A stretch of DNA of 64,000 nt. It comes from Escherichia phage vB_EcoM_I14.1. Where the stretch lies: the sequence record PP892526.1; one strand, given 5' to 3'. Below, in pieces: positions 4,738-23,767 of this stretch. Positions within the stretch are counted from its first letter, which is position 1. Each line of letters opens with the position of its first letter. The notes beneath the pieces are model-generated. The model ran no database searches, had not been told where the DNA came from, and saw nothing but the letters and a program-made list of their open reading frames with translations. The position numbers were made by a program, and so were the translations under genes.

Positions 4738-5020
4738 TAAACTCTCTGACGAAGAAATAGTTGACTTTATTATTACCTACCATAAGGTCAAAGCAGGTAT
4801 TCTCAAAAGGTTTGTTGTAGGCATCATATGAAGTGTACGTATCAGCTACTTGTTTAGTATTGAGCTTTTTACTTGATGGATTTAAGAGGCCACCATACAG
4901 TTTCTTGATAGCCTCTTCTACAACAGACCAGATAATTTCGTCGGTAATTTCTTCGTACAGGTCAAGTTCACGCTCTAGTGAGAAGTCACAAATAGGGAAG
5001 ATAACCTGTACTTTGCTCAT
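4727..5020 (-). CDS. hypothetical protein
   Basis: 97-aa ORF. Confidence 0.55.
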   Translation of the reverse strand: MSKVQVIFPICDFSLERELDLYEEITDEIIWSVVEEAIKKLYGGLLNPSSKKLNTKQVADTYTSYDAYNKPFENTCFDLMVGNNKVNYFFVREFNDE

Positions 5021-5415
5021 TAACGAATAACCTGTGTGACTTGAATTGCTTCAGTTACGGACAAATCACCAACTTTCTCTTCTTTGATGAAAGTAAAGGT
5101 GAGTTCAACAGGTTCTTGCTCTTCTTGCTCAACTGGAATACCGTTAAGCTCATCAAAGATTGATTGGGTAGTCCAGTCTTCTCCACCATCTGGATAATGG
5201 ATGGCATAAAGAGGAAACTCTAAATTATACCAAGCAAAAACAGGACAACCATCTGCATCATCTCGGCATCTGTGGAGGTACGTATTTGTACCTTCAAAAT
5301 GCAAATGAAGATTGCCATTCTTCTCAAATAGAAGAGCATCTCGCAGGTCTAGTTCCTCATTTTCGCTGTAACGACTGACATCAACTTTAACGTGGATATG
5401 ACTGTTATTATTCAT
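5020..5415 (-). CDS. hypothetical protein
   Basis: 131-aa ORF. Confidence 0.6.
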   Translation of the reverse strand: MNNNSHIHVKVDVSRYSENEELDLRDALLFEKNGNLHLHFEGTNTYLHRCRDDADGCPVFAWYNLEFPLYAIHYPDGGEDWTTQSIFDELNGIPVEQEEQEPVELTFTFIKEEKVGDLSVTEAIQVTQVIR

Positions 5416-5806
5416 AAAAACCTCTCTCTGCTTGTTCGATTTTTGCTCTTAAAGTTTCGCAATGCTGTAAATGGTAGTTAGCTTCTTGTTCATGTGTTGC
5501 TAACTGCCTTTCAAGAACAGTTTTATAGTAACCTGCAAGTTGCTCTTTTGTCAATGGGTGCTCTGAAATAATATCAAGTCCACTTTCACCAAGAGGATTG
5601 AATTGTCCATGCTCATTGACATTGTAAGTCTCAAACTTGAACATACCATTGTTCACAGACTCAATAGGTGACAGTTCAACAAGCTCTACAGTAAACCGTG
5701 TATACACCTTGTCGCCTCTTGAAACTACATTGTTTCCGACAATGCGTACAAGCGAACCATTACGAGTATACTTAAAAGTCCCAAAGTCACTGGCCCAAAG
5801 CTTCAT
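5408..5806 (-). CDS. hypothetical protein
   Basis: 132-aa ORF. Confidence 0.6.
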   Translation of the reverse strand: MKLWASDFGTFKYTRNGSLVRIVGNNVVSRGDKVYTRFTVELVELSPIESVNNGMFKFETYNVNEHGQFNPLGESGLDIISEHPLTKEQLAGYYKTVLERQLATHEQEANYHLQHCETLRAKIEQAERGFYE

Positions 5807-5820
5807 AGTTTTCTCCTTAG

Positions 5821-5847
5821 AAAATAAAAAAGGCTCCCGAAGGAGCC
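5821..5847 (-). terminator. rho-independent terminator after endolysin gene
   Basis: GGCTCC-ttcg-GGAGCC hairpin plus T-run on minus strand. Confidence 0.75.
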
Positions 5848-5857
5848 TATGAAGATA

Positions 5858-6322
5858 TTACTTTGGATATATACTGTCAAGATAAATGTCAGCTTCCATT
5901 CTACGTCTGTTTTTCAAGCCGTTTGAAGTGACCTTCTTACCTTTGACTGTAATCTTGTTCCACCACTGCATAGCTTCTGCACAACCTACCTTATTACCAG
6001 CATTGTGGCGCTTGATAAATGTAGAATCCTGCATAGCTGTGATACCGATGTTGTATGTTTCACTTACAAGTGCATCGAACTCATTCTGAGAAGTTGTAAC
6101 CTTGATAGCTTTGTTCACTGCTGCAACAAACTTTTCAACATCTGCGAGAAGATACTGTTCAGCTTGTTCAGCCGTGATTTTCATACCCATCTTAACAGGT
6201 TTACCAGAAATACGGATTGTACCATACCCAATTGTTGGGATTCCGGCAGAGTCTTCGTAAGCCTCTAACTTCAGACCTTCAAAGAACTTAATAGCCTCTA
6301 AACCTTTTCTTGAGAGTTGCAT
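5858..6322 (-). CDS. endolysin, T4-type lysozyme (glycoside hydrolase family 24)
   Basis: N-terminal motif EGLKLEAYEDSAGIPTIGYGT (catalytic Glu/Asp/Thr pattern of phage lysozymes), 154 aa. Confidence 0.85.
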   Translation of the reverse strand: MQLSRKGLEAIKFFEGLKLEAYEDSAGIPTIGYGTIRISGKPVKMGMKITAEQAEQYLLADVEKFVAAVNKAIKVTTSQNEFDALVSETYNIGITAMQDSTFIKRHNAGNKVGCAEAMQWWNKITVKGKKVTSNGLKNRRRMEADIYLDSIYPK

Positions 6323-7206
6323 TATACCTCCCCTGCTGGGTTAACCGTAACTGTTGCCGCATTAGATGTCACAGAACCACCTGCACCAGTCACTACACAA
6401 GTGTAGCTTCCTGCATCAGCAGTGGTTGCACCTTCTTTGGTGTAAGTTGCAGTAGTTGCGTCTGGGATGACTTCCTCACCTTTCTTCCACTGGTAACCTG
6501 TTGCACCAGTTGCCACAACATTCAGCGTTAATGTCTCACCTTCAGTGATTTCTTGATTTGCTGGCTGTTGAGTGATAACTGGCAAAGCATTCACAGTTAC
6601 TGTTGCTGCATCTGAGGTAACACTTGTTCCACCATCTCCAGATACAACACAAGTGTATGAACCAGCGTCAGAAGGTGCTACGGATGGTTTTGTGTAAGTT
6701 GCAGAAGTGGCACTAGGGATGTCCTCACCATCTTTCTTCCACTGATAACCAGTGGCATTAGACGCAACAACACTCAGAGTAAGTGTTCCACCTTCATTGA
6801 CTGTTTGGTTTGTTGGTTGCTGAGTGATTGATGGTGGTGTGATGGCATCTTTCAACTTAGCATTCAGCATTGAGAAAGGTTTAACTCTTGCCAGCCATTC
6901 ACAATAAATTGTGTCAACATCTTTACCGTTGATGATTGCATACTGTAAATCCATGAAGAAATCAGCAGTTCTCATCTGTGCACCAACACTGTAAAGGAGT
7001 TCATCACTAAACGGAACTTTGTAGTCTGGTTTGTAGTCAAACTTCTTAACTTCTGCGATATCAGCTTCAGGCCAATATGAGCTATAGGTGAGTGGTAAAA
7101 TAGCTTCTTGATATGTTCTAAAATCATATCTCTTACCAGCCTTTACATTTGCGATGAAGCCCTTCACAAATTCTTTGAAGTCTGGGTAAGTCTTTGCTTT
7201 AATCAT
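6322..7206 (-). CDS. protein with two C-terminal Ig-like domains; N-terminal domain paralogous to the next gene
   Basis: Two ~85-aa tandem repeats (ITQQP..GYQWKK..AGSYTCVV..ATVTVN); N-terminus shares GKRY, WPE(A/E)DI, FMD(L/I)QY, LNA(K/R)L with 7203..7574. Confidence 0.7.
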   Translation of the reverse strand: MIKAKTYPDFKEFVKGFIANVKAGKRYDFRTYQEAILPLTYSSYWPEADIAEVKKFDYKPDYKVPFSDELLYSVGAQMRTADFFMDLQYAIINGKDVDTIYCEWLARVKPFSMLNAKLKDAITPPSITQQPTNQTVNEGGTLTLSVVASNATGYQWKKDGEDIPSATSATYTKPSVAPSDAGSYTCVVSGDGGTSVTSDAATVTVNALPVITQQPANQEITEGETLTLNVVATGATGYQWKKGEEVIPDATTATYTKEGATTADAGSYTCVVTGAGGSVTSNAATVTVNPAGEV

Positions 7207-7574
7207 TTCTTTTTAGCCTCTAAACGTGCGTTTAATCTAAAATAGCCTTTATGTTGTGGAGACACATCACTAACAACAATACCTTCAACCTTATAGCCCT
7301 TACCAATTACATACTGGATATCCATAAGAAACGTACCAAGCCCAACAATGTGGAACATTGGGTATAGTAACTTATCTGAATCTGGGAGTTTAATTTCTGG
7401 GTTATAGGTGTGTTGTTCGGAAGTTGGTGTAATATCCTCTTCAGGCCATTTACTCATTCTCCATGTTAAAGGTGATGCAATAACATCGTTGAGATTATAT
7501 CTTTCACCATTCTCCACGGAGTGGATATAGGATTGTAGGAAGCAGTAAAAGTCTTTTGCACTCTTAGCCTTCAT
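7203..7574 (-). CDS. hypothetical protein, paralog of the N-terminal domain of the Ig-like protein
   Basis: 123-aa ORF; shared motifs with 6322..7206. Confidence 0.65.
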   Translation of the reverse strand: MKAKSAKDFYCFLQSYIHSVENGERYNLNDVIASPLTWRMSKWPEEDITPTSEQHTYNPEIKLPDSDKLLYPMFHIVGLGTFLMDIQYVIGKGYKVEGIVVSDVSPQHKGYFRLNARLEAKKK

Positions 7575-7587
7575 TAAATATCCTTAT

Positions 7588-7613
7588 AAATAGATAAAGG
7601 GGCATCAGCCCCT
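7588..7613 (-). terminator. candidate terminator hairpin
   Basis: AGGGGC-tgat-GCCCCT followed by tttatctattt on minus strand. Confidence 0.5.
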
Positions 7614-7621
7614 GTTTATAC

Positions 7622-8212
7622 TTAAGCTTTGGTCTTAAGTAGGTTCTTAAGTTTTTTGAGATTCATGCTCTCGTCAAACTTAAAACCAAATCCATTGACA
7701 TAATCAATGAACTCGGATTTCTTACTAAGTGATAGTGCGTAGCTCATATCAAAGTTATTACTTGTTTCTGCGTCTGGACTAGAGTTCACATCAAATGAAA
7801 TTTCTGTAGGCTCTTGCTTGCTACTTCTCATATTATCAATCAACAGACAGGTATAGTTTGCTGGATAGAAGTTAACACTCCCATCAACATACCCATACTT
7901 ATTATTGTGAATAAGGCTGGAAAATACCTTAAGAAATGTTTCTGAGTCGTGGCATACAAGTTTGAATTGACTGCATTCTCCAAGAGCCACTAAAGAGTAA
8001 GGGCTTTCACTATCAATGTCATAGTTTGGGTTTGATGTTGTAACTGTCACACGCATCAGGTTATTGGCAATAGTCTTCTGCTTGAAAGAATTTGGAACAT
8101 AGTGAAGACCTCTATCACACTGATTAACTAACTCTTTCAATAGGTCATTTGCATATGGTGAATTAATTGATACAGAGCCATCACTATTATAATTAAAACT
8201 TACTGTTAACAT
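7622..8212 (-). CDS. hypothetical protein
   Basis: 196-aa ORF. Confidence 0.6.
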   Translation of the reverse strand: MLTVSFNYNSDGSVSINSPYANDLLKELVNQCDRGLHYVPNSFKQKTIANNLMRVTVTTSNPNYDIDSESPYSLVALGECSQFKLVCHDSETFLKVFSSLIHNNKYGYVDGSVNFYPANYTCLLIDNMRSSKQEPTEISFDVNSSPDAETSNNFDMSYALSLSKKSEFIDYVNGFGFKFDESMNLKKLKNLLKTKA

Positions 8213-8439
8213 TTTTCAGTTCTCCTGCGATTTATGATTTTGCTGCAATAGAGAAACGAAGTAAACTCACTGGAAGAAACCATCAAGTGCTGTTCACTAG
8301 ATTGAGCCATTGCCCTGAAATACATTCCAGTCAAAGCATCGTAGTGACTATTCTTTCCAATTGAGGTTATATAGCCATGACTCTTTGCAGTTTGATATAA
8401 ATCTATAATATCTGCGATTTCTAATTGGGAACTACACAT
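8206..8439 (-). CDS. hypothetical protein
   Basis: 77-aa ORF. Confidence 0.5.
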   Translation of the reverse strand: MCSSQLEIADIIDLYQTAKSHGYITSIGKNSHYDALTGMYFRAMAQSSEQHLMVSSSEFTSFLYCSKIINRRRTEKC

Positions 8440-8603
8440 AGATAATCCTCTTGTCTTCTGTAATTTTGAAAGAACAGGTACAGACCAATTTCAGAGGATG
8501 AATAGTAGAGTAACTCTACCCTTTTTGATTCCTTACAGTGATTGGTATTTTTACCTTTCTTCGGGTTGTTTGATTTTCTCATTAAGTCTCCTTTGTAGAA
8601 CAA
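8421..8603 (-). CDS. hypothetical protein
   Basis: 60-aa ORF, first gene of the leftward operon. Confidence 0.45.
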   Translation of the reverse strand: MFYKGDLMRKSNNPKKGKNTNHCKESKRVELLYYSSSEIGLYLFFQNYRRQEDYLCVVPN

Positions 8604-8678
8604 GGCAGACCTACAGCTTTAAGTAAGATGGTACAGTAATCCATACAACAAGTCAAGAACTATTGCAAGCTAAAAAAG

Positions 8679-8705
8679 TTGTTGACAAAGTACTTGACAA
8701 GGTGT
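8679..8705 (+). promoter_or_regulatory. conserved element GTTGACAA(A/T)GTACTTGACAAGGTGT (tandem TTGACAA) in a divergent intergenic region
   Basis: Near-identical 24-mer also at 51495-51520; both lie between divergently transcribed operons. Confidence 0.5.
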
Positions 8706-8831
8706 AGGCTTATAAATACTTAGAAGATAACTTAAAAGGTTCCTCTAAAAAGGCTATTTAAACAGATATCTTTCTGGATATCTATCTTTTATCTTAAAAG
8801 CCTTTTAAGAGGTCTTATAAGAGGCATACCA

Positions 8832-9203
8832 ATGAAAAACAGAACAAACAAAGGCCAGTTTAAAAAAGGCCAGTCTGGAAACCCATCTGGAAGACCAAAA
8901 GGCTCTCGTAACAAAAGCTCACTTGTAAAAGCTCAACTGACCATTGATAATTCTGCTGAGTTTGCTGCAAAGTTGTTTGAAGCGATTGTTACAAGGGACG
9001 CTGCTAAGCTTGCAGAGTTTGGTTTAAACACAGATGACGTAACCATCAAGAGCATGATTGAGGTCGGTAAAACTATCATGACTCACTCAGCAGGTGAGAT
9101 GAAAGCAATTGCAGCAGATACTAAGAAGACCCCTGATAATGGTGGTCAGTCACAGACAGATAACAAACCAACGTTCTCTGCTGTAGCGACTCTCAAAAAA
9201 TAA
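8832..9203 (+). CDS. hypothetical protein with N-terminal GNPSGRPKG motif
   Basis: 123-aa ORF with RBS; this basic motif is common in small phage proteins. Confidence 0.6.
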   Translation: MKNRTNKGQFKKGQSGNPSGRPKGSRNKSSLVKAQLTIDNSAEFAAKLFEAIVTRDAAKLAEFGLNTDDVTIKSMIEVGKTIMTHSAGEMKAIAADTKKTPDNGGQSQTDNKPTFSAVATLKK

Positions 9204-15610: not shown

Positions 15611-16345
15611 ATGAAAGAGATGACAGAACAAGGTAAGGAGATTTTTAATCTCTTAAAAACCGGTAGAGGGTTTTCTAATCCCCTTATTACTGGTGCAGCA
15701 GTTCTCGGTGGAACAGTAGCTGCCTCTACATCACTTGTAAGCTCTATTAGCTCTGTAACAGACCCTACAATAAAGGATAAGCTTATTGCTGCTGGACTTA
15801 CAACAGTTCTGCTTAATAGCTTTACAACGAGTCTGACAAGCACTACATCAACCACTAAGACACTGACAGATTACGGTCAAAAGTCCATTGATGAGTTTTC
15901 ATCACGTATGCAGGTAGCAAAAGGCTACTCTAATGTTATGGGTGCAGCAGGGGAACAAGTTGGTTGTACACCATTTAGTGGTATTATGGGCGTTGCTACA
16001 GAATATGGTCAAAAAGCTATTGACACAATTAACAGTACACTAGACGGTGTTAATGATGTATTAAGTGACTTACAAGATGCTATTGATAAAGGTCTTGATA
16101 CTATTTCTGATTTAGCTAACCAAGCTGTTAGCAAGATTAATGAAGGTATCTCGAAGATTACAGCTTATGCAGATGAAGTTGTGCAGATGATTGAAGAAGA
16201 AGCTGCCCTTATTGCAGAGTACCTTAAAACGAATATCAATGGGTTCTTAGCAGGTATCTTACCAGACTGGTTTGATGATGCTTGTAAAACTGGTGTAATT
16301 GACACTATTGCAACACCAGAAATGAAGAACGCATTACAGAAATAA
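15611..16345 (+). CDS. hypothetical Ser/Thr-rich protein
   Basis: ORF track start 15548 lies inside tRNA-Phe; ATG at 15611 with AAGGTG RBS. Confidence 0.6.
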   Translation: MKEMTEQGKEIFNLLKTGRGFSNPLITGAAVLGGTVAASTSLVSSISSVTDPTIKDKLIAAGLTTVLLNSFTTSLTSTTSTTKTLTDYGQKSIDEFSSRMQVAKGYSNVMGAAGEQVGCTPFSGIMGVATEYGQKAIDTINSTLDGVNDVLSDLQDAIDKGLDTISDLANQAVSKINEGISKITAYADEVVQMIEEEAALIAEYLKTNINGFLAGILPDWFDDACKTGVIDTIATPEMKNALQK

Positions 16346-22660: not shown

Positions 22661-23767
22661 ATGTTGACTAATTCTGAAAAAAGCAGATTTTTCCTTGCTG
22701 ACCTGACTGGTGAAGTCCAGTCTATCCCAAATACTTATGGGTATATTTCCAACTTAGGTCTGTTCCGCTCAGCACCAATCACCCAAACTACTTTCCTTAT
22801 GGATTTGACTGATTGGGATGTTAGCTTGCTTGATGCGGTAGACCGCGATAGTCGTAAAGCAGAGACTAGCGCACCTGAGCGTGTTCGTCAAATCAGCTTC
22901 CCAATGATGTACTTCAAAGAAGTTGAAAGCATCACTCCTGACGAGATTCAGGGTGTACGTCAGCCAGGCACTGCAAACGAACTGACTACTGAAGCTGTAG
23001 TACGTGCTAAGAAGCTGATGAAGATTCGTACCAAGTTCGATATTACTCGTGAGTTCCTGTTTATGCAAGCTCTGAAGGGTAAAGTTGTCGATGCTCGTGG
23101 TACTCTGTACGCTGACCTGTACAAGCAGTTCGACGTTGAGAAGAAGACTATTTACTTCGACCTTGACAATCCTAATGCTGACATTGACGCTGCTATTGAA
23201 GAACTGCGTATGCACATGGAAGACGAAGCTAAGACTGGCACTGTAATCAACGGTGAAGAAATTCACGTAGTTGTTGACCGCCTGTTCTTCAGCAAACTGG
23301 TTAAACACCCTAAGATTCGTGACGCTTATCTTGCACAGCAGACTCCGCTGGCTTGGCAACAGATTACTGGTTCTCTGAGAACTGGTGGTACTGACGGCGT
23401 TCAGGCTCACATGAACACTTTCTACTACGGTGGTGTTAAGTTTGTCCAGTACAACGGTAAGTTCAAAGACAAGCGTGGCAAGGTTCACACTCTGGTAAGC
23501 ATTGATAGTGTAGCAGCAACTGTTGGTGTAGGTCATGCTTTCCCTAACGTTTCTATGCTGGGTGAAGCAAACAACATCTTCGAAGTGGCATATGGTCCAT
23601 GTCCTAAGATGGGTTATGCAAATACACTTGGTCAGGAACTGTACGTATTCGAATACGAAAAAGACCGTGACGAAGGTATTGACTTTGAAGCTCACTCTTA
23701 CATGCTGCCATACTGCACACGTCCTCAGTTGCTGGTAGACGTTCGTTCTGACGCTAAACCAGACTAA
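22661..23767 (+). CDS. major capsid protein (lambda gpE-like family)
   Basis: 368 aa, position after protease and decoration genes, high codon regularity. Confidence 0.75.
   Translation: MLTNSEKSRFFLADLTGEVQSIPNTYGYISNLGLFRSAPITQTTFLMDLTDWDVSLLDAVDRDSRKAETSAPERVRQISFPMMYFKEVESITPDEIQGVRQPGTANELTTEAVVRAKKLMKIRTKFDITREFLFMQALKGKVVDARGTLYADLYKQFDVEKKTIYFDLDNPNADIDAAIEELRMHMEDEAKTGTVINGEEIHVVVDRLFFSKLVKHPKIRDAYLAQQTPLAWQQITGSLRTGGTDGVQAHMNTFYYGGVKFVQYNGKFKDKRGKVHTLVSIDSVAATVGVGHAFPNVSMLGEANNIFEVAYGPCPKMGYANTLGQELYVFEYEKDRDEGIDFEAHSYMLPYCTRPQLLVDVRSDAKPD

Follow-up and report, generated by a model that had tools for sequence, protein, structure and literature searches.

The Ig-bearing protein encoded beside the endolysin of Escherichia phage vB_EcoM_I14.1: a probable Hoc-like capsid decoration protein and its Ig-less paralog

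Why does a phage keep the gene of an Ig-bearing protein directly against its endolysin gene, more than 10 kb away from the main structural module, and what is the smaller, related gene in front of it for? The question arises within a stretch of 64,000 nucleotides of Escherichia phage vB_EcoM_I14.1 (PP892526.1; the window in what follows), whose sequence is 100% identical to that of Escherichia phage vB_EcoM_D4, a Felixounavirus, and whose locus is common to 250 Felixounavirus-type records. Three genes follow one another on its minus strand: one for a protein of 123 aa (7203..7574; PHROG 4463), one for the Ig-bearing protein of 294 aa (6322..7206), and one for an endolysin of 154 aa, a GH24 lysozyme of the T4 type (5858..6322; Pfam Phage_lysozyme, 2.3e-40; PHROG 7, endolysin). 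The stop of the first overlaps the start of the second in ATGA, and the stop of the second shares one base with the endolysin start at 6322, in a TAATG preceded by GGGGAGG. The sequence-only reading of this locus had rightly recognized this last overlap, as well as the N-terminal domain common to the first two genes and the two tandem Ig-like modules of the second; it went on to propose that the Ig-bearing gene is translationally coupled to the endolysin, and that its product is a non-structural protein which binds carbohydrates or the cell surface in connection with lysis or adsorption. The codon overlap can be read in the sequence itself, and the coupling would be a supposition drawn from it; the remaining proposals have to be set against what is known of the orthologs.

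The Ig-bearing gene is in fact already known, as that of the Hoc-like decoration protein of the Felix O1-type phages. Its product matches, over the full length, two direct orthologs of solved structure, the Hex-Dec protein of Bas63 (9ncf_S; phmmer E 1.1e-244, with the alignment starting from residue 1) and gp20 of Sf14 (9c2d_S; E 1.4e-165), and its capsid-binding domain (CapBD; residues 1–122, 6841..7206, minus strand), which is somewhat more diverged from that of Sf14, is near-identical to residues 1–122 of 9ncf_S, with few substitutions in the printed alignment. By cryo-EM the ortholog is a monomer located at the centres of the facet-edge hexamers, with an N-terminal CapBD and Ig domains that are not resolved (PMC12609058); the hexamers plugged in this way by Bas63 Hex-Dec or Sf14 gp20 are the 60 facet-edge, pentamer-proximal ones of the T=9 capsid (PMC12609058; PMC11821841), and Arg79 and Arg107 of Sf14 gp20 contact Asp221 of the major capsid protein (PMC11821841). 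Both arginines are present in the 294-aa protein and invariant in 28 of 28 orthologs, the CapBD having a dN/dS of 0.044, and on the other side of the contact the major capsid protein of the window phage (22661..23767, plus strand) shows few substitutions against 9ncf_A over 368 aa (E 3.7e-248) and conserves the motif KIRD221AY, and with it Asp221. The gene neighbourhood is likewise the same as in Bas63 and Sf14 (paralog, Hex-Dec, endolysin), the only difference being the number of Ig units, two in the window phage, four in Bas63 and three in Sf14. Finally, mass spectrometry has detected gp20 in the virions of Sf14 (PMC11821841) and gp36 in purified virions of Felix O1, with 44% coverage (PMC3185647). 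The virion proteomics already published for the orthologs therefore places the Ig-bearing protein among the structural components, unrelated to lysis, and its classification as non-structural has to be abandoned.

Our reading, to which we assign a probability of about 0.9, is that 6322..7206 encodes a Hoc-like decoration protein of the hexamer centres, that 7203..7574 is an old duplicate of its CapBD, and that the adjoining endolysin is no more than a member of the same conserved unit. The N-terminal 118–122 residues would fold as a compact CapBD. A single, monomeric copy of it would fill the centre of every pentamer-proximal hexamer, of which the T=9 head has 60, and would be held there by salt bridges in which Arg79 and Arg107 pair with Asp221 of the major capsid protein; the two C-terminal Ig domains, of the I-set type, would form a flexible string protruding from the head. 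This arrangement has been shown for the orthologs, from which its location and contacts are carried over to the window phage, given the near-identity of both partners.

The two Ig-like domains occupy residues 125–208 (6583..6834, minus strand; Pfam Ig_3, I-set) and 209–292 (6331..6582, minus strand; Pfam Ig_2, I-set), the matches to Ig_3 (1.3e-22), Ig_2 (2.2e-20) and I-set (6.5e-16) all exceeding the Pfam gathering cut-offs, and both contain DAGSYTCVV. At the level of DNA they form a direct repeat with a spacing of 252 bp (6377–6576 and 6629–6828, 72% identical). The first domain has 89–90% identity to the first Ig of the orthologs in loci L016 and L020, and the second 92–93% identity to the last Ig of the same two, being also near-identical to residues 375–458 of the Bas63 protein; to judge by these identities, domain 1 would correspond to the first Ig, and domain 2 to the last, of the orthologs with three and four Ig units. 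Over 28 loci there is one Ig in 3, two in 13, three in 10 and four in 2. The number of units, from one to four in the relatives, would change as the repeated Ig-coding units recombine with one another, and the window phage would retain the first and the last of them.

As regards the role of this string, the Ig part is acidic (calculated pI 4.07), and it is solely this region (residues 121–291) that matches the PHROG families of Hoc-like head decoration proteins. By analogy with T4 Hoc, it would likely give the particle a weak hold on surfaces of the host or the environment, or control the aggregation of particles. Of the binding function that the sequence-only reading had tied to lysis or adsorption, adhesion to surfaces or carbohydrates coincides with the role currently proposed for the family, and nothing links it to lysis. 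Bas63 has a greater need of g124 on the host S17-1 (bioRxiv 10.1101/2024.10.10.617714), and a check of the gene numbering gave bas63_0123 as the endolysin, bas63_0124 as Hex-Dec and bas63_0125 as the paralog.

Hex-Dec is, however, an analogue of T4 Hoc and not a member of its family. Both are monomers of the hexamer centre that combine a capsid-binding domain with an acidic Ig-like string, both are dispensable, and roles in adhesion or aggregation have been proposed for both; but the order of the domains is reversed, the capsid-binding domain being C-terminal in Hoc and N-terminal in Hex-Dec, the fold of the Hex-Dec CapBD is larger, topologically distinct and pseudo-two-fold symmetric (PMC12609058), no sequence homology is detectable beyond the Ig domains, and Hex-Dec fills just 60 of the 80 hexamers. 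With T5 pb10 and the other Ig-bearing decoration proteins (fusions to Pfam Big_2 or I-set) the Ig module alone is shared, their capsid-binding domains being unrelated; two PDB chains that bear the label of decoration protein, 8zvi_a and 5lxk_A, are matched by the Ig part (E about 8e-13).

The second half of the question concerns the 123-aa protein, which aligns with the 294-aa protein over 121 aa (residues 1–119 of both) with 36% identity (BLASTP, E 2e-17), well above anything that chance would give, and with residues 3–119 of 9ncf_S (E 3.9e-13), and whose counterparts are Felix O1 gp37, Bas63 gp125 and VpaE1 ORF40c. It has no Pfam match and no Ig domain, ending at residue 123; a word-indexed protein search with it returned close paralog orthologs only, and no description of it was found in the searchable literature. 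An AlphaFold2 model from a 17-sequence alignment reached a mean pLDDT of 62 and a pTM of 0.57, and Foldseek with this low-pLDDT model gave no match in the PDB at E <0.1, without recovering 9NCF or 9C2D; according to the authors of the Sf14 study, AlphaFold mispredicts this capsid-binding domain (PMC11821841). Judged from its sequence alone, the paralog would retain the CapBD fold. Both anchoring arginines are nevertheless replaced, Gly78 standing at the position of Arg79 and Gln107 at that of Arg107 of Hex-Dec, and among the paralogs the glycine is invariant at the former position, with Q, H, N or K at the latter.

The paralog would accordingly be pictured as an old duplicate that comprises only the CapBD, late-expressed from the Hex-Dec unit and held by purifying selection. 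Our best guess, held with low confidence, is that it is a dispensable accessory factor and not a stoichiometric component of the virion; it may act on a step of capsid or Hex-Dec assembly, for instance by transient occupancy of the hexamer centre or by partnering Hex-Dec before maturation. In its wider form, in which the paralog is a functional late CapBD-only protein that controls decoration, either as a hidden three-fold cap or as a transient placeholder or Hex-Dec partner until the head matures, the proposal is a tentative one that we would not expect to hold. We know of no phage in which a Hoc-like decoration protein has a regulator or placeholder dedicated to it. If it were true that the paralog regulates the occupancy or timing of decoration, it would be a new element in the phage control of accessory capsid proteins, relevant also to Hex-Dec as a display scaffold, a use to which T4 Hoc has been put. 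What remains for now is a more modest point, namely a gene that is conserved and selected, yet unreported in virions and naturally lost in one lineage.

A more specific possibility is that the 123-aa protein is a second decoration protein, an Ig-less plug of the 20 true three-fold hexamers that are closed to Hex-Dec. It is homologous to the entire CapBD, it is late-expressed together with Hex-Dec and under purifying selection, and it differs at exactly residues 79 and 107, the geometry of which is said to bar Hex-Dec from the three-fold hexamers (PMC11821841); moreover, a monomer placed on a true three-fold axis would have its density weakened and smeared by icosahedral averaging. Even so, neither cryo-EM study has density at the three-fold hexamers, nor is the paralog modelled in 9NCF or 9C2D (PMC12609058; PMC11821841). 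It is missing from the published list of Felix O1 virion proteins, drawn up with a 25% coverage cut-off, though the smaller gp23 (9.7 kDa) was detected (PMC3185647), nor does it figure among the three additional proteins detected in virions of VpaE1. Lastly, a viable lineage has lost the gene, and a search for compensating changes in the CapBD of the paralog-less genomes revealed none that was obvious, 115–118 of 122 residues being those of the window phage, with R79 and R107 retained. We regard such a plug as rather unlikely.

It may also be asked whether the paralog does anything at all, or is a functionless leftover of duplication, retained only because its 3′ end provides Hex-Dec with a ribosome-binding site and start context. 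About 92% of the related genomes have the gene, and in some 20 of 252 records it is missing or reduced to a pseudogene. Phages mio, Tf and FGS030 carry a decayed remnant of it, and what is left of the pseudogenised paralog is exactly its 3′ end, GAGG and ATG included. The rate at which the paralog evolves is, besides, roughly three times that of the CapBD. On the other hand, a dN/dS of 0.12, with a median dS near 0.7, indicates purifying selection, its reading frame is intact at 122–124 aa in three genera and in a paralog only 46% identical (P0055), and its core VGLGTFLMDIQY is almost invariant; a mere leftover is for these reasons improbable. As for Bas63, the paralog was considered as the retron-Ec67 trigger g123 and rejected, as bas63_0123 is the endolysin; in the main text of the PhageMaP study g125 goes unmentioned (bioRxiv 10.1101/2024.10.10.617714).

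Having placed the Ig-bearing protein on the head, its position beside the endolysin is to be explained. The paralog is separated from the upstream 196-aa gene by a GC hairpin that resembles a terminator, AGGGGCTGATGCCCCT, with a T-rich run after it (7598..7613, minus strand); this hairpin is kept in 28 of 28 loci, with changes of loop and stem that preserve the pairing, and its equivalent is given in Table 2 of the Felix O1 study as a rho-independent terminator (PMC3185647). A strong terminator-like hairpin, AGGCTCCTTCGGGAGCCT, followed by TTTTTATTTT (5831..5848, minus strand), comes directly after the endolysin. These hairpins mark the 5′ and the 3′ edge, respectively, of a three-gene unit, in which the junctions of paralog, Hex-Dec and lysozyme overlap or abut in 26 of 28 loci (the other two end after the paralog, so that the count covers the 26 reaching far enough), and likewise in a divergent contig of 87 kb; even a distant relative (L040), whose CapBD is a single Ig-less copy, retains the adjacency to the endolysin. 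Paralog, Hex-Dec and endolysin would thus constitute one conserved unit bounded by two hairpins, and it is because of this unit, and not of any part taken by Hex-Dec in lysis, that the endolysin adjoins it.

In Felix O1, RT-PCR shows ORFs 36 and 37 both peaking at 60 min and the lysin at 25 min, so a single, simple co-transcript is not established. A late-promoter motif was considered for the interval that separates the upstream hairpin from the start of the paralog and was rejected, as CTATTTATAAGG (up to two mismatches) had 12 matches against 7.6 expected, without enrichment; a sigma-70 scan was at chance (10 found, 10.2 expected), and an Rfam scan of 5000–16000 gave tRNAs only, none of them in the region of the three genes. 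A programmed −1 frameshift joining the paralog to Hex-Dec at T-AAA-AAG, just upstream of ATGA, was also considered and rejected, because this site is altered in L020 and L025 and missing in Mooglevirus- and Suspvirus-type loci, and because the mass listed for Felix O1 gp36, 31.6 kDa, is that of the unfused product.

The endolysin, a single-domain GH24 lysozyme from a phage of Gram-negative bacteria, needs no wall-binding module. This bears on the idea that the Ig-bearing protein is a non-structural partner of the endolysin, either a binder of wall or carbohydrate or a factor of lysis or adsorption belonging to a lysis operon, an idea that the overlap of stop and start codons, the tightly conserved gene order and the distance from the main structural module would all invite. 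The endolysin is, however, complete as a single-domain enzyme, the expression peaks of lysin and ORF36 in Felix O1 are separate, the conditional phenotype of Bas63 g124 differs from the retron-trigger phenotype of g123, the endolysin, and cryo-EM shows the orthologs on the capsid, where mass spectrometry, too, detects them in virions, all of which leaves a lysis partner very improbable.

That the 294-aa protein is a tail or major tail protein, as stated by PHROG 3995, by many GenBank records and, for Felix O1, under the name of HK97 major tail subunit, can hardly be true, for this label derives from the similarity of the Ig domains to Ig-bearing tail tube proteins and goes no further than them (the PHROG match covers residues 96–208 only), cryo-EM puts the orthologs on the capsid (PDB 9NCF, 9C2D), and the Bas63 authors explicitly call the tail annotation wrong (PMC12609058). 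The practical value of identifying the protein as Hex-Dec is to correct this label, which is borne by the record of vB_EcoM_D4 and by most of the related records.

Beyond these phages the CapBD family is very small, with 12 representatives in an exhaustive HMMER search, and hence there is no annotated distant homolog from which to borrow a function. Its distant members match in the N-terminal domain (P0057–P0061; HMMER E 3e-8 to 2e-4) and carry different appendages, P0057, P0058 and P0061 being fused to Big_2, P0060 to Ig, and P0059 having a Lys-rich tail. They are single-copy, with no Ig-less second copy seen in the contigs available, and are nearer to the CapBD of Hex-Dec, with which they share up to 38% identity, the figure for the paralog being about 27%; P0059, moreover, also adjoins a lysozyme, in a syntenic locus.

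The Ig-bearing gene of this locus is already known, and it is its Ig-less paralog that is previously unreported and presents a small, testable curiosity. Bases 5800-8300 are 100% identical, at equal coordinates, to Escherichia phage vB_EcoM_D4 (PP886228.1), whose name we use for the encoded proteins, and another 249 phage records match the region, most of them from Felix O1-type phages of Escherichia, Salmonella, Shigella and Citrobacter; the genome, of which the window holds the first 64 kb, is assigned to Felixounavirus. Three minus-strand genes lie where the sequence-only reading had placed them: the paralog (7203..7574, 123 aa), a 294-aa protein (6322..7206), and an endolysin of 154 aa, a GH24 phage lysozyme (5858..6322; Pfam E 2.3e-40). 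The N-terminal domain which that reading held to be common to the first two was recovered (36% identity over residues 1-119, E 2e-17), as were two Ig domains in the longer copy (residues ~125-292), each with DAGSYTCVV. The paralog stop overlaps the next start as ATGA, and the stop of the 294-aa protein overlaps the endolysin start as TAATG, with GGGGAGG before it; the overlap behind the proposed coupling to the endolysin is therefore real, and from such overlaps translational coupling may be supposed.

The 294-aa protein matches, over its full length, two chains of known structure: 9ncf chain S (E 1.1e-244), the Hex-Dec of Bas63, and 9c2d chain S (E 1.4e-165), gp20 of Shigella phage Sf14. The former is an ordered monomer at the centres of the facet-edge hexamers of a T=9 capsid (PMC12609058); in the latter the capsid-binding domain (CapBD) comprises the first 118 residues, Arg79 and Arg107 form salt bridges with Asp221 of the major capsid protein, and mass spectrometry of the particles detected the protein (PMC11821841). 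Both arginines are present in the D4 protein and in 28/28 extracted orthologs, and the D4 major capsid protein (22661..23767, plus strand), with few differences from that of Bas63, has Asp221. From these full-length matches, together with the arginines and their capsid partner, the 294-aa protein is identified, at the level of sequence, as a member of a known family of capsid decoration proteins whose structure has been solved, hereafter Hex-Dec. Its best PHROG family (3995) is labelled tail protein, and weaker matches to Hoc-like head decoration families are confined to the Ig part; the label 'tail protein' in the D4 record should read capsid decoration protein. In Felix O1 the ortholog gp36 was found by virion proteomics (31.6 kDa, 44% coverage), and the authors placed this 'tail protein' gene at a distance from the remaining morphogenesis genes (PMC3185647). 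The earlier suggestion of a non-structural protein linked to lysis is thus refuted, since the orthologs are located on the capsid by cryo-EM and in virions by mass spectrometry.

Nor was any link of Hex-Dec to lysis found when gene order, expression and the Bas63 phenotypes were considered. The order paralog, Hex-Dec, endolysin, with overlapping or abutting junctions, is kept in 26/28 loci, that is, in all those reaching far enough, the other two ending after the paralog, and also in a divergent metagenomic contig of 87 kb, where identity of the paralog falls to 46%. In a more distant contig (SRR33913825_5192, 5001-5462) a single CapBD gene occupies the equivalent slot beside a lysozyme, in surroundings that are otherwise syntenic, and its product has a Lys-rich, probably disordered C-terminal tail instead of Ig domains, which suggests that the capsid-binding module may be combined with different surface-exposed tails. 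Because the order is kept across the loci, the divergent contig and the distant phage, the adjacency of Hex-Dec and endolysin is an old conserved gene order. By RT-PCR in Felix O1, ORFs 36 and 37, the Hex-Dec and paralog orthologs, are late (60 min), as are those for portal, sheath and fibre, and the lysin appears at 25 min (PMC3185647). In Bas63 (MZ501086.1, where 0123 is the endolysin, 0124 Hex-Dec and 0125 the paralog), expression of the endolysin g123 alone is reported to set off the Ec67 retron, whereas g124 has a different, host-dependent phenotype, mattering more on E. coli S17-1 than on three further strains in a transposon-style fitness screen (bioRxiv 10.1101/2024.10.10.617714).

The three genes lie between two terminator-like hairpins on the minus strand, one downstream (5848..5831) and one upstream (7613..7598), the latter conserved and included among the terminators of Felix O1 (PMC3185647). 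This GC hairpin keeps its position in the relatives' loci L002-L033, of Felixounavirus, Mooglevirus and Suspvirus type, with loop and stem changes that preserve pairing (ggggctgatgcccc, ggggcgaaagcccc, ggggcatcagcccc), and only ~25 nt separate it from the paralog ATG; it could be either read through or a processing or stability element. A candidate promoter motif upstream of the paralog was not enriched. Further upstream, a 196-aa gene (7622-8212, minus strand; PHROG 4034, function unknown) keeps its position in all loci, the distant ones included, and its 185-aa equivalent in the distant contig has a faint Pfam match to Phage_Inh_N.

The Ig fold proposed for Hex-Dec is upheld by Pfam (Ig_3 1.3e-22, Ig_2 2.2e-20, I-set 6.5e-16), and the surface-binding role proposed with it is plausible by analogy with Hoc; both structure papers propose Hoc-like surface adhesion or aggregation control (PMC12609058, PMC11821841). 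The Ig part is strongly acidic (calculated pI 4.07), as Hoc and Bas63 Hex-Dec are reported to be. Its coding units form a direct repeat with 252-bp spacing and 72% DNA identity, and over 28 loci the protein has 210-211 aa with one Ig (n=3), 294-298 aa with two (n=13), 377 aa with three (n=10) or 461 aa with four (n=2). Since the first D4 Ig matches the first of the longer forms (89-90% identity) and the second matches their last (92-93%), the internal units are those gained or lost; such variation, previously noted in both papers, is what recombination between repeats would be expected to produce.

The paralog matches the whole CapBD (E 3.9e-13 against 9ncf_S residues 3-119), and its median pairwise dN/dS is 0.12 (median dS 0.73), against values of 0.044 in the CapBD and 0.074 in the endolysin; such a ratio is that of a real gene under purifying selection. 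Its core VGLGTFLMDIQY is almost invariant, with a constant Gly at the position of Arg79 and Q, H, N or K at that of Arg107, and the published contacts would be impossible for it. Exhaustive HMMER searching against 1.84 billion representatives recovered a family of just 12 members, the distant ones being single-copy CapBDs fused to Big_2 or Ig domains; as these are nearer to the Hex-Dec CapBD (up to 38% identity, versus ~27% to the paralog), and branches are longer in the paralog clade, the paralog is the derived, faster-evolving copy. AlphaFold2 modelled the paralog poorly, and a fold search from the model gave no useful match.

As to its role, the paralog is read as functional but dispensable, and probably not a stoichiometric virion component. 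It is missing from the proteins listed for Felix O1 virions, among which one of 9.7 kDa does appear (PMC3185647), and its ortholog ORF40c is not among the proteins that VpaE1 added to that list. Around 20 of 252 records have the Hex-Dec copy only. In phages mio, Tf and FGS030 (L004:2306-2498, L005, L006) a decayed remnant has lost its start codon and ~225 bp internally, retaining the last ~60 nt, the 3′ end that holds the Hex-Dec ribosome-binding site; the CapBD key residues of these phages are unchanged. They exemplify a subclade of ~20 Felixounavirus genomes with a pseudogenised paralog. The most economical guess, held with low confidence, is that the paralog would act at the assembly step of Hex-Dec, on the hexamer centres or on Hex-Dec itself. 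Decoration of the 20 three-fold hexamers by the paralog is unlikely, although the evidence against it is entirely negative: the virion lists, and the cryo-EM maps, in which the hexamers left empty by Hex-Dec show no density (PMC12609058, PMC11821841). Both papers leave the paralog unmentioned, the word 'paralog' occurring in neither, and further literature searches found no description of it. The Bas63 and Sf14 literature does contain a single virion density with no assigned protein, and no evidence ties it to the paralog. A -1 frameshift fusing the paralog to Hex-Dec at T-AAA-AAG was rejected, the motif not being conserved.

An Rfam scan of 5000-16000 at gathering threshold returned only tRNAs, two of the matches being weak (12588-12666 and 13266-13353). 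Directly upstream of the cluster of ~22 tRNAs (~10866-15590) lies a gene for a Ro60/TROVE-like protein (9285-10700, plus strand; DUF2828), annotated as an RNA-binding or vWFA protein, whose Bas63 ortholog gp130 is reported to counter the ppl defence system, its authors having speculated on phage Y RNAs.
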